This document shows positions 10,265-15,804 of a stretch of 64,000 bases of DNA, in pieces (within the stretch, counting starts at the first letter, position 1; every line of letters starts with the position of its first letter). The translations under genes were made by a program, and so were the position numbers. Source of the DNA: Eubacteriales bacterium (GTDB lineage Bacteria > Bacillota > Clostridia > Oscillospirales > CAG-272); assembly GCA_045531965.1 (NCBI GenBank), contig JAZSFA010000078.1:1091-65090 (forward strand). The letters are read 5' to 3'. The notes beneath the pieces are model-generated. The model ran no database searches. It was not told where the DNA came from and saw only the letters and a list, made by a program, of their open reading frames with translations.

Positions 10265-10293
10265 TTGACATTCCATCGAAAAAATGATAGAAT
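10265..10293 (+). promoter_or_regulatory. Sigma-A type promoter for the large TasA-like gene
   Basis: TTGACA, 17-nt spacer, TGaTAGAAT. Confidence 0.65.
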
Positions 10294-10337
10294 AAAATAT
10301 CTATATTATGTCATTATGTCGGGAAAGGAGAGCATAT

Positions 10338-11834
10338 ATGAAAACTTTAAAACGGATTAGTGCTTGTATAGGCATCTTCTTTATGTTTTGCTTTGTCTGT
10401 ATCGGTTACGCCGCCATTTCTGACAACCTTCTGATCACCGGTTCGGCGGAAACGGATATACCCTCGGGTTTGTTCATCGTAGACGTTTCGGTTGAAAGTG
10501 AGTCGTATGTTGATAAAAACACCGTGGAGTTTATTCCTTATACAACAACCGTCAAATCCACCATTAGCAGATCCAACCGTTATTACGAGGGCAAGGTTAC
10601 CTACAAGATCACCGTACTCAATAACACAAAGCTGACTTATTCGTACAGAGATATCTATTTCCAAGCGAATTTGAGCGGCTATAACGGAAACCAATATGTT
10701 TCAGGTTCCAACGGTTCTCGAAACATTGGCGTTGTGTGTGAATTGAAAGATGCCGACACAGCAGATAAGATCGTCAAACCCGGCGATACCCTCGAATTTG
10801 AGGTGACTTATACCGTTGGTACTAACAGAGACAGAAATACCAACTGGGCCACCATGATTAACTACCAGTTTGGTATCAACGTGGACGGAGAGAGAGAAGC
10901 CCTTGACGTCATTGAATCCAAGTTTTTGAATATCCTGAATACCCAGTCGACTTATGAACAACTGATTGATGTATTGGATAATAAGTTTGACGGTTATCAG
11001 GAATGGACCTCCAACTACATCGGAAACGTGCAGAGCTCCACCAGCGAAGACTCCGTTGCGGTCAACACCCTGTTTGCAGGTCAGTTGCAGATCACTGTCG
11101 GACAGGAAGATATGGATGCCACGGTACTGATCAAGCATGAAAATCTTGACGGAAACACCATGACAGGTGACGATTATACAGCCGTAAATTCGAGCAACGG
11201 AGGCGTGTTCAACGGATATGGCTGCGAAATGACTCTGTATCTGACCATCGACCCGTTGGAGAGAGCGGGGTCGTATGTGCCGGTGTACGTGGCGGTATTC
11301 ACCTGTGATCGGGATGAAAACGGCAATATTGTGAGTGACTGGTACAGAATCGGTGATACCTACGCCGGTGAAGCCAACGTGGTTTCCTACGAAGGCGGCA
11401 ACGGAACGGGTTCCTTCGTCACGGACAACTGGATAGCCTACCGAGAGACCTACACCATGGTCGAGGGTTATTCCTACGATATCAACGGTGCCGTTTATCA
11501 ACTTGATGCGTATACCTACGATATCGCCGCAGGTGTCAACATTGAAAGCATCGTCATGGCGCATGACGACAGAGCCGTCAGCATTTTCCAAACGCTCCTT
11601 GACGACGCGAAAAGGATCATTGATAGCCGTGAATTTGCGGGTGTAGGTATTGATCTCGTGGAAGAAGTCTATAGCAGTCTTTCCCGCTATTATACGTTGG
11701 ACGAGAACGGCAATCCCATTGCCAACGCTAGCTTGACCCGAAGCCAGTTCTCACCGGTGATCTCAGATCTTTACTACGTTGTCAGTGAGACCTTGATGAA
11801 AATGGAAGCTCTAACTCAACAACAACAGTCATAA
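10338..11834 (+). CDS. Secreted protein with a SipW-class signal peptide: a TasA/camelysin-like N-terminal beta-rich domain plus a C-terminal extension of about 300 aa
   Basis: ATG 10338 after AAAGGAG. The N-terminus MKTLKR + hydrophobic helix + GYAAISDNLLITGSA shares a junction motif with 12191..12691 and resembles the TasA/TapA junction. Alternating beta-type sequence (KVTYKITVLNNTKLTYSY, KPGDTLEFEVTYTV). Confidence 0.65.
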   Translation: MKTLKRISACIGIFFMFCFVCIGYAAISDNLLITGSAETDIPSGLFIVDVSVESESYVDKNTVEFIPYTTTVKSTISRSNRYYEGKVTYKITVLNNTKLTYSYRDIYFQANLSGYNGNQYVSGSNGSRNIGVVCELKDADTADKIVKPGDTLEFEVTYTVGTNRDRNTNWATMINYQFGINVDGEREALDVIESKFLNILNTQSTYEQLIDVLDNKFDGYQEWTSNYIGNVQSSTSEDSVAVNTLFAGQLQITVGQEDMDATVLIKHENLDGNTMTGDDYTAVNSSNGGVFNGYGCEMTLYLTIDPLERAGSYVPVYVAVFTCDRDENGNIVSDWYRIGDTYAGEANVVSYEGGNGTGSFVTDNWIAYRETYTMVEGYSYDINGAVYQLDAYTYDIAAGVNIESIVMAHDDRAVSIFQTLLDDAKRIIDSREFAGVGIDLVEEVYSSLSRYYTLDENGNPIANASLTRSQFSPVISDLYYVVSETLMKMEALTQQQQS

Positions 11835-11865
11835 AAGCTTAATAAACGATATCATTACTAGCTAT

Positions 11866-11913
11866 AGAGCTGTTTCAAGCACAGATGACAAAGCGTTTGA
11901 AACAGCTCTTTTG
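11866..11913 (+). terminator. Intrinsic terminator after the large TasA-like gene
   Basis: AGAGCTGTTTCAA/TTGAAACAGCTCT 13-bp stem, then TTTTG. Confidence 0.8.
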
Positions 11914-13894: not shown

Positions 13895-13909
13895 AAGGGA
13901 GGTAGTCAT

Positions 13910-15733
13910 ATGTCGGAATCCCAAAGAAGACTGCGTGATTTATACAGAAAAAACCGCAAACGTTTGATTTCTGTTCAATCGGTTATTCTGAGCATTCTGG
14001 TCGTTCTGATCATCATCTCGGCAGTTACGTACAGCTATATCGGTCGCATGTATTATGTAGATTATACCGAAAATAGTGATGTAAACGTCACGGTAGGTCT
14101 CAAGGAAAACGATTTTTTTGAAGACGATTACGTGGATAAGGATCATACCTACGTAGCAACCTTGATCGACCATGTATACGCCACGTTTGTATACGATTTG
14201 TTTACCGAATCCGAGGACGTCAATTACGAGTATTCCTATAATGTAGAAGCTCAGCTCATGATCATGAGCGAAAAATCCGACGAGCCTATTCTCGACCCTA
14301 TCTACGTCATTGAACCGGAACAGAGATTATCTCACAACGCAGGAGTGCCCTTGCGTATCAATTATTCCGTTATCATTGATTATGACGAATATAATGATAT
14401 TGCAAACCGTTTCCAAAATGCCTATGAGATCCCTGATACGGTCAGTACGTTGATCGTTCGTTTGAACGTCAAGGTTCACAGTACGGCAGCCTCTGTTGAC
14501 AGTGAGACGACTAATAAACACGTCATTGAACTGACAATTCCTTTGACACAAAAAGCCGTCGATATTGAAATGGGTACCAGTATTCCCACTGCCGAGACAA
14601 AGCAAATCGCTTGTAACGGCGGAGCAGGAAAGGCTGTTTTCCTGGTCGCTACCATCGTTCTCAGCGTGATTGCCCTGCTGTTCGCTTTGTTCTTGATTGC
14701 CTTTATCTTCTGGACTCGCACCAATGATACAACATATGCGGGCAAACTGAAAAAGATCTTGAACAGCTATAAGTCTTACATCCAAAAGATCAACAACGCA
14801 TTCGATAAGGAAGGATATCAAGTCCTGTACGTTGATACCTTCGCAGAGCTTTTGGAGATTCGCGAAACCTTGCAGGCACCTATCCTCATGCATGAAAATC
14901 GCGATCAGACACGTACGGAATTCCTAATTCCTACCAACACCAAGTTGCTATACCTCTTCAGTTTGCAAGTGGAAGGTTATGATGAATTATATGACGAACC
15001 GGCTCCCACCCAAGAATCTGAGCCTGTTGTTGTTACTGTCGTAGCGCCCGAGGTTGTGCATGAGCCCAAGCCTGAGCCTGAGCCTGAGCCTGAACCCAAG
15101 CCCAAGCCTGAGCCTGAGCCTGAACCCAAGCCCGAGCCCGAGCCCGAGCCCGAGCCCGAGCCTGAACCCGAGCCCGAGCCTGAGCCCGAGCCCGAGCCCG
15201 AGCCCGAGCCCGAGCCTGAACCCGAGCCTGAGCCTGAGCCCGAGCCTGAGCCTGAGCCTGAACCCGAGCCCGAGCCCGAGCCCGAGCCTGAGCCTGAGCC
15301 TGAGCCTGAACCCGAGCCCGAGCCCGAGCCCGAGCCCGAGCCCGAGCCTGAGCCTGAGCCTGAGCCCGAGCCCGAGCCTGAGCCTGAACCCGAGCCTGAG
15401 CCTGAACCTGAACCTGAGGGTGTTGAAGTCATTGGCGTCGTTTGGCCGGAGCATAAGGATAGAGAAAAGGAACGTATTTACCGTTATGACCCCAACGGTG
15501 AAAAGTTGGATGTTGGCGATATCGTCTTGGTTCCTTCCACAGACGTGCACCAACAAAAGGAGATCGTCAGAGAAGCTGAGGTCGCTCAAGCTAACCACTT
15601 TGTCGATCCCGATTCTGTCAAGTATCCGCTCAAGAAGATCATTCGAGTCGTCAGACGCAAAGCTGAAAAGCTCTTTGTCTCTATGATCATGAATGAAGTG
15701 CAAAACGAGGAAAACACAGAAAACCAAGAATAA
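13910..15733 (+). CDS. Two-TM membrane protein with an extracytoplasmic beta-rich loop domain, a cytoplasmic linker, a 119-aa (Pro-Glu/Lys)n rod and a small C-terminal domain
   Basis: SD GGGAGG. Basic N-terminus, TM1 ([21 protein letters not shown]), a loop of about 190 aa, TM2 ([27 protein letters not shown]), then PEPEPE..., then the C-terminal [15 protein letters not shown]...GDIVLVPS domain. Possibly DUF5305-like (from memory, unverified). Confidence 0.7.
15062..15418 (+). repeat. Tandem hexanucleotide repeat (GAR-CCN)n, about 59 units, in frame and encoding (E/K-P)n
   Basis: Uninterrupted gagccc/gagcct/gaaccc/aagccc units run from 15062 to 15418. A recurring cct-gaa-ccc punctuation suggests higher-order blocks. 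Confidence 0.95.
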
Positions 15734-15745
15734 TTCCTTTATCGG

Positions 15746-15804
15746 GAGAATCAAGTGTGAATTAAAGAGGCTTCTCTTTGTTCCGCACTTGGTTCTCTTT
15801 TTTT
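15746..15804 (+). terminator. Intrinsic terminator ending the fibre-module operon
   Basis: GAGAATCAAGTG / CACTTGGTTCTC stem (one G-U) enclosing an inner hairpin AAAGAG-GCTT-CTCTTT, followed by T7. Confidence 0.65.

Follow-up and report, generated by a model that had tools for sequence, protein, structure and literature searches.

In a 64,000-nucleotide stretch of contig JAZSFA010000078.1 of a Eubacteriales bacterium (assembly GCA_045531965.1; hereafter the window, in whose positions all coordinates are given), four co-oriented plus-strand genes, A, B, C and D, probably make up a self-contained surface-fibre module, a bundling pilus or biofilm matrix of the TasA-superfamily kind, with the AbpX loci as its closest described relatives. 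We see in it a divergent variant, unannotated and very widespread among gut Clostridia, of a type of locus laid out in papers from 2023 to 2026. In the mechanism that we propose, B would be the major subunit and A, with its large extra domain presumably for binding, a minor or terminal one. Both would be exported by Sec, and C, a dedicated Ser-His signal peptidase that probably acts together with D, would cleave their common signal peptide after G-Y-A. The cut would expose an N-terminal amphipathic strand, A-L-T-D-x-L-x-I-x-G-x-A, which would then enter the beta-sandwich of the next subunit (donor-strand complementation) to give a non-covalent polymer. The parts of the locus are as follows.

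10265..10293, plus strand: promoter-like site of gene A (TTGACA-17-TAGAAT with a TG extension, 11/12 consensus)
10338..11834, plus strand: gene A, 498 amino acids (aa), predicted minor, tip or terminal subunit
11866..11913, plus strand: intrinsic terminator of gene A (hairpin and U-run, -23.6 kcal/mol, z -5.3)
12043..12071, plus strand: promoter-like site of the B-C-D operon (TTGAAA-17-TATAAT with a TG extension, 11/12 consensus)
12191..12691, plus strand: gene B, 166 aa, predicted major subunit
12770..13894, plus strand: gene C, 374 aa, multi-pass membrane domain and signal peptidase I domain (13556-13894)
13910..15733, plus strand: gene D, 607 aa, DUF5305-family protein with two transmembrane helices
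15744..15806, plus strand: intrinsic terminator of the B-C-D operon (hairpin and U-run, -29.9 kcal/mol, z -5.8)

All four genes are in the window's list of open reading frames (ORFs). Our ORF, promoter and hairpin scans agree with an initial annotation of this DNA, which had placed the four genes, both promoters and both terminators at these coordinates; the motifs that it had described, namely a junction shared by A and B, the catalytic boxes of C, and the two hydrophobic spans and Pro-Glu (PE) rod of D, are likewise present.

The junction is the feature that ties A and B together. It reads IGYAAISDNLLITGSAE in A and IGYAALTDVLDITGSAD in B, with the general form G-Y-A/A-L-T-D-x-L-x-I-x-G-x-A (slash, predicted cleavage site), and a six-frame translation of the window contains the motif nowhere else. 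To describe its conservation, we used 128 relatives of B (down to ~30% identity) and 42 relatives of A. Upstream of the site, all sequences have Gly at -3, Tyr or Phe occupies -2, and 95-98% have Ala at -1. Downstream, Leu, Val or Ile occupies +2 and Thr or Ser +3; Asp stands at +4 in 81-90%, Leu at +6 in 86-89%, Ile or Val at +8, Gly at +10 in 93-95%, Ala at +12, and Val or Ile at +14. The alternation of hydrophobic residues (+2, +6, +8, +12 and +14) gives an amphipathic beta-strand pattern that extends 14 residues past the site. The junction is the most conserved part of both proteins, though they otherwise differ, and the claim that A and B have one common processing and donor-strand-like junction holds across both sets of relatives. 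With its small residues at -3 and -1, the junction is compatible with cleavage by signal peptidase I, and cleavage presumably follows G-Y-A in both A and B.

The same pattern can be laid against an experimentally defined donor strand. In the AbpX precursor (...GLTYA/QWSETLSLSATI), residues W2, L6, L8, A10 and I12 are buried in the groove of the neighbouring subunit and position 4 is acidic (bioRxiv 10.64898/2026.01.04.697558); the solved AbpX chain begins at Q55. The corresponding part of B (...GIGYA/ALTDVLDITGSA) is in register with this strand except at position 2, which is Leu. Mature TasA begins AFND, and this start also lines up with the junction of A and B.

B has the layout of a small exported subunit: after a basic N-terminus come ~16 hydrophobic residues and then the junction, G-I-G-Y-A-A-L-T-D-V-L-D-I-T-G-S-A. 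Residues 1-24 are predicted to be a signal peptide that is cut after G-Y-A, residues 25-38 (DNA 12263-12304) are amphipathic and form the putative donor strand, and the remainder is an acidic immunoglobulin (Ig)-like beta-sandwich. The AlphaFold2 model (predicted local distance difference test score, pLDDT, 92.6) begins with the signal helix, leaves residues 22-39 unpacked and then has one short helix and a beta-sandwich of nine strands; in monomeric AbpX, the N-terminal segment is reported to be disordered (bioRxiv 10.64898/2026.01.04.697558). If cleavage after G-Y-A is assumed, mature B has an isoelectric point (pI) of 4.05 and 14.1% Asp+Glu. In a Foldseek search with the B model, weak matches to donor-strand pilins (CfaB, FimG, the PapG pilin domain, Csu) and to the TasA fibre recur. 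Separately, four giant proteins of 2,000-4,300 aa (P0134, P0163, P0245 and P0270) match residues 80-148 of B in 15-21 repeats. P0134 is a DUF7507/DUF11 repeat protein whose repeats weakly match the TasA Pfam family over an L-x-PGD...F-x-F-x-N-G strand; because this strand is common to these Ig-like families, it is not specific evidence of homology to TasA.

A begins in the same way and then continues. A signal peptide and the junction (GYA/AISDNLLITGSA) lead into a B-like N-terminal beta-sandwich (~residues 26-185), and ~310 aa of further beta and helical domains follow; mature A has a pI of 4.15 and 14.4% Asp+Glu. In the A model (pLDDT 81.7) the junction is disordered (pLDDT <50); beyond the beta-sandwich, the chain continues with a helical hairpin and another beta-rich domain and ends in a helical bundle. 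Mature B aligns over its full length, collinearly, with the first ~141 residues of mature A (hhalign 77.6% probability, 114 columns), which makes A a B-like domain extended by ~310-330 aa. This B-like N-terminal domain fits a minor or tip subunit, as the initial annotation had proposed for the larger protein, and A may sit at an end of the fibre. A search with the A model found no structural relative (best E 7e-3, TM <0.15, where TM is the template-modelling score), and Pfam gave nothing significant on the C-terminal two-thirds of A. Searches of PDB sequences with A, B and a B-family profile returned generic Ig and Fn3 domains only (C5a peptidase, E 4e-4), with no TasA or AbpX entry.

The enzyme encoded by C is a signal peptidase of the archaeal/endoplasmic reticulum (ER) Ser-His type. 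It has ~8-9 hydrophobic spans in ~residues 1-262 and then a catalytic domain in ~residues 263-374 with the boxes GSGSMTGE, RVIHRV and RGDANEDND; the predicted catalytic residues are Ser275 and His313. C passes TIGR02228, the archaeal/ER-type signal peptidase I family (84.3 bits against a cut-off of 51.85, E 8e-24), and falls below the cut-off of the bacterial LepB-type TIGR02227 (29.1 bits against 47). The SMTGE, HRV and GDAN boxes are at least 90% conserved among 50 homologues of C, so the earlier assignment of this peptidase to the Ser-His type is borne out. Several residues of the membrane domain, including an E-x-x-R motif, are also at least 90% conserved among these homologues, and the domain itself has no Pfam family match. 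The conserved polar residues within the spans (12770-13555) include the E-x-x-R at 113-116, Q122 and a position that is mostly Asn. A reading of this motif as that of a CPBP-type protease was rejected: it had no hidden Markov model (HMM) support, and its spacing differs from the EExxxR of the CPBP motif. The peptidase encoded next to abpX in Pyrodictium abyssi has 380 aa to C's 374, the same domain order, and a catalytic domain 35% identical to that of C. Over the full length, hhalign gives 98.6% across 274 columns and aligns the E-x-x-R with REMVR; for the membrane domain alone the similarity is not significant.

D, the last gene of the operon, belongs to a family that is found beside such peptidases. 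The initial annotation had suggested a search for DUF5305, and D passes this Pfam family (PF17231) with 39.6 bits against a cut-off of 29, the match covering residues 149-332. It has two hydrophobic spans (~residues 19-37 and 249-267), and its parts run in the order basic N-terminus, first transmembrane helix, ~200 aa outside, second transmembrane helix, basic juxtamembrane segment, ~100 aa inside, PE repeat and a domain of ~90 aa. The repeat is made of ~57 copies of GAGCCC (DNA 15062-15402/15418), and the conserved C-terminal domain lies at 15455-15733. By the positive-inside rule, we predict that the PE rod and the last domain are cytoplasmic and not a spacer that spans the wall. In the homologues of D, a core of ~365 aa is always present, whereas the acidic, low-complexity linker varies from several hundred residues down to being absent (~1/3 of homologues). 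Its composition also differs: it is PE in the window and E/V/P/D elsewhere (homologues in loci L004-L050 of the set described below). D was found in 45 distinct loci, and in 27 of them it has the C-terminal domain (70-90 aa), which has no significant Pfam family match.

Proteins of the DUF5305 family have been proposed as signal-peptidase partners in AbpX and Tafi loci in three papers (bioRxiv 10.64898/2026.01.04.697558, PMC11821415, PMC12337348). By analogy, C and D would form such a pair.

The module is conserved as a unit. We scanned one genome per species with exact motif patterns drawn from a close alignment, a design that makes the scan uninformative on the abpX species of the preprint cited above. 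It found the module in 45 species, all represented by metagenome-assembled genomes (MAGs) from gut or rumen: Oscillospiraceae, Vescimonas, Faecousia, and unnamed Eubacteriales and Clostridia. In these 45 genomes and in five metagenome loci, the order and orientation of B, C and D are constant wherever the contig reaches. An A-type gene adjoins B-C-D in ~40 loci, directly after D in most or directly before B, as in the window. This near-perfect synteny supports the earlier expectation that the four families co-occur. The B family itself is large, with 644 matches in a database clustered at 90% and 1,422 representatives at 50% identity; nearly all of the best 150 listed representatives have 160-195 aa and the same N-terminus, and the named members are "hypothetical protein" entries from Clostridia MAGs. 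Some loci have tandem genes, with two B-type genes each in L020 (374-1704) and L032 (8001-9053) and tandem A-type genes in L050 (6895-9071); these may represent major and minor subunits or alternative tips.

The layout closely resembles that of the abpX loci. The P. abyssi AbpX fibre, solved in a preprint of January 2026, belongs to the TasA superfamily and polymerises by donor-strand complementation, and abpX loci of archaea (Thermoproteota), Bacillota and Chloroflexota also encode AbpX-like proteins as minor subunits, tip proteins, a signal peptidase I whose transmembrane helices number ten, where two are typical of prokaryotes, and a DUF5305 protein as proposed accessory subunit (bioRxiv 10.64898/2026.01.04.697558). 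In the module, as in these loci, there is a small acidic subunit (pI ~4, ~14-15% Asp/Glu), a junction of the form Y-A/x-Phi-(S/T)-(D/E)-x-L-x-(L/I) that leads into an amphipathic strand, a signal peptidase I (~375-380 aa) in which a long multi-pass domain is joined to a catalytic domain of the TIGR02228 type, an accessory DUF5305 protein that has two transmembrane helices, and additional subunit-like genes with extra domains that would encode minor or tip proteins. The view that this locus is built from non-canonical parts that match no described system is therefore out of date: its layout is that of the abpX locus, and the pairing of DUF5305 with a peptidase was already known from Tafi. Many bacterial abpX loci carry LPXTG, sortase or S-layer homology (SLH)-type anchors and have Spo0A-like regulators nearby (bioRxiv 10.64898/2026.01.04.697558). 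One related locus of our set likewise has spo0A beside it, but no LPXTG anchor was found near the module loci. The module further differs in the acidic PE linker and additional conserved C-terminal domain of D and in its junction, where +2 is not aromatic; the Asp at +4 (81-90%) agrees with the acidic position of AbpX. Its hosts, MAGs of uncultured gut Oscillospiraceae and other Clostridia, are not among the example loci of the preprint, which searched RefSeq (bioRxiv 10.64898/2026.01.04.697558).

A second set of systems shares the pairing of peptidase and DUF5305 protein. Haloarchaeal Tafi loci and related Thermococcales clusters pair TafG, a DUF5305 protein, with the signal peptidase TafD (PMC11821415, PMC12337348). 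Like these DUF1102 clusters with their TafA/TafE pilins, the module combines a signal peptidase and a DUF5305 protein with strand-donating (in the module, putatively so) pilins of 150-200 aa, and as in Tafi it is the structural genes that vary and the enzymatic ones that stay conserved. In contrast to the module, Tafi pilins are mostly exported by the twin-arginine translocation (Tat) pathway, TafD has four transmembrane regions and another domain order, and the hosts are archaea; no DUF1102 or Tafi family is among the matches listed for B in a Pfam scan of 128 B-family members. The likeness to chaperone-usher pilins (CfaB, FimG, the PapG pilin domain, CsuA/B), which are Ig-like subunits with an N-terminal donor strand, is one of analogy only, with TM 0.30-0.37 and a module that has no chaperone, usher or outer membrane.

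Several observations weigh against a fibre of this kind. Neither A nor B matches Peptidase_M73 (PF12389) at E<=1. The 128 B relatives matched 141 families at E<=0.1, and the 25 most frequent of these, as listed, do not include it. The sequence of B is most like DUF7507, DUF11, CARDB and fn3_5 Ig domains, which are common in surface proteins that do not polymerise, and every Foldseek match of B has TM <=0.41, with generic Ig-like domains (MSP/VAP, amylopullulanase) among them. The alignment of B with AbpX drops from 85% in hhalign with the signal peptide to 7-17% without it, measured against a shallow AbpX profile of five close Pyrodictium-type sequences; a BLASTP comparison of the two is not significant (E=25), and the AbpX structures 9SJ2 and 9RHP are not among the best 50 Foldseek matches of B, although their membership in the Foldseek library was not established. 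UniRef labels AbpX itself as CARDB-containing. At +2 the junction has Leu, Val or Ile, where the preprint emphasises an aromatic residue for AbpX, and no LPXTG anchor that could hold a fibre on the cell is encoded near any locus. These comparisons do not establish that the mature B domain is homologous to TasA or AbpX, and membership in the AbpX clade, which is defined by BLAST P-value clustering (bioRxiv 10.64898/2026.01.04.697558), is unproven. With no M73 match, weak fold matches and a similarity to AbpX that is lost without the signal peptide, donor-strand polymerisation is therefore a step that we infer. The main rival draws on much of the same evidence: the genes could be dedicated to processing and secreting Ig-like proteins that stay monomeric, as adhesins or matrix components that are secreted or displayed on the surface, and the junction would be only the recognition site of the peptidase. 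The resemblance of B to Ig domains of non-fibre proteins, the lack of a TasA HMM match, the weak folds and the missing anchor gene speak for such a system. However, the conservation runs 14 residues past the site in an alternating amphipathic pattern, which is longer than signal peptidase I needs; the pattern recurs in two otherwise different proteins and is in register with the AbpX donor strand; and the characterised peptidase/DUF5305 systems (Tafi and the AbpX type with DUF5305) all have donor-strand fibre substrates. We therefore hold the monomeric system to be unlikely.

Two known pilus or fibre types can be set aside with much greater assurance. An orthologue of the Bacillus tapA-sipW-tasA biofilm operon, in which only SipW and TapA are listed beside TasA (bioRxiv 10.64898/2026.01.04.697558), is suggested by two features: like that operon, the module encodes an ER-type Ser-His signal peptidase beside its substrates, and the mature N-terminus A-Phi-x-D resembles the AFND of TasA. 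The two systems also share a beta-sandwich subunit with a strand motif of the L-K-x-G-D...F-x-F-x-N-N-G type. Yet C scores 44.4 bits against a cut-off of 190 for the SipW equivalog NF046067 and has a multi-pass domain of ~260 aa that SipW lacks, a DUF5305 gene is present, there is neither a Peptidase_M73 match nor a TapA-like gene, and mature B has 142 aa to the 234 aa of TasA. TIGR04088, the SipW-cognate signal peptide, has no match in A or B at E<=1 and matches three of the 128 B relatives weakly (best E 0.003); the TasA fibre 8AUR is tenth in the Foldseek ranking of the B model (E 1.2e-3, TM 0.29/0.22). The kinship of the subunits to TasA or camelysin put forward in the initial annotation is thus not demonstrated by these comparisons, C is not a SipW orthologue, and orthology of the operon, refuted by the HMM cut-offs, is very improbable. 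Even less credible is a type IV pilus-like system or a sortase-assembled Gram-positive pilus, which would share with the module its small subunits, N-terminal hydrophobic segments and a larger tip-like protein. In the module the conserved motif and the small -3/-1 residues follow the hydrophobic segment, unlike a class III prepilin signal, and no prepilin peptidase, ATPase, sortase or LPXTG protein lies in the module or within 8 kb of it in the 45 loci (Pfam matches to all families cover loci L001-L005). Gene content speaks against this type. No ORF in any of the 50 loci has an LPXTG-type C-terminus, and no sortase or SLH families are among the precomputed Pfam matches of L001-L005, the other loci having been screened only for homologues of A-D and for LPXTG.

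A more far-reaching version of the fibre reading can be entertained only tentatively. It would make the module a separate, very large lineage of donor-strand fibres of uncultured gut and rumen Oscillospirales, with a DUF11/CARDB-type Ig pilin in place of the TasA jelly roll and no wall anchor. C and D would be a true membrane assembly platform, with the rod and C-terminal domain of D coupling it to the cytoplasm. We regard this version as possible but doubtful.

Some details of the locus and its surroundings complete the picture. For A and B, longer ORFs that start at 10308 and 12155, respectively, were judged less likely; the starts at 10338 and 12191 are preferred because they have a Shine-Dalgarno sequence upstream and homologues begin at an equivalent Met. 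Both terminators were missed by a simple terminator scan because their loops are long, and no terminator or attenuator was found in the gap between B and C (folding z -0.96). The locus had been thought by eye to be AT-rich, and this is real: without the PE repeat it has 44.9% GC, compared to 49.4% for the whole window and 53.8% for the left flank. The difference is modest and uneven, however, as gene B alone has 50.9%.

The genes that flank the module vary between lineages. The window is syntenic with L007 (Oscillospiraceae bacterium SIG700), and here the DNA of the fibre genes (10323-15732) is 78-80% identical while that of the flanks (6202-9442 and 16189-18619) is 85-94% identical; the surface module therefore evolves faster than its neighbourhood. 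Window positions 9442-10323 have no counterpart in L007, which has ~1.9 kb of different DNA there. This segment of the window includes an ORF at 9586-10170 for a protein of 194 aa with an N-terminal zinc ribbon and one transmembrane helix, with its own promoter-like site at 9507. On the other side, 15906-18617 encodes a protein of 903 aa with a lipoprotein-like N-terminus, a Thr/Glu/Pro-rich linker and a match to the GH123 catalytic domain (E 6e-15); this gene has its own promoter-like site at 15857, adjoins the module in L007 as well, and lies outside the module in other genomes. In L001 the module is directly downstream of spo0A (7036-7815; Response_reg and Spo0A_C), a link that is absent in the window and in L004.

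The large pilin-like family of B is named by no database, and the type of locus to which it belongs is already described in the 2026 preprint. Oscillospiraceae and their relatives are abundant in the gut, are mostly uncultured, and have surfaces about which little is known. If the B family forms fibres, the four genes together would be a signature by which a major adhesion or biofilm structure could be recognised in gut metagenomes, and fibre systems with a peptidase and a DUF5305 protein (TasA, AbpX, Tafi) would extend into mainstream gut Firmicutes. As a compact system, the module also lends itself to the question of what the multi-pass peptidase domain and the DUF5305 partner do.

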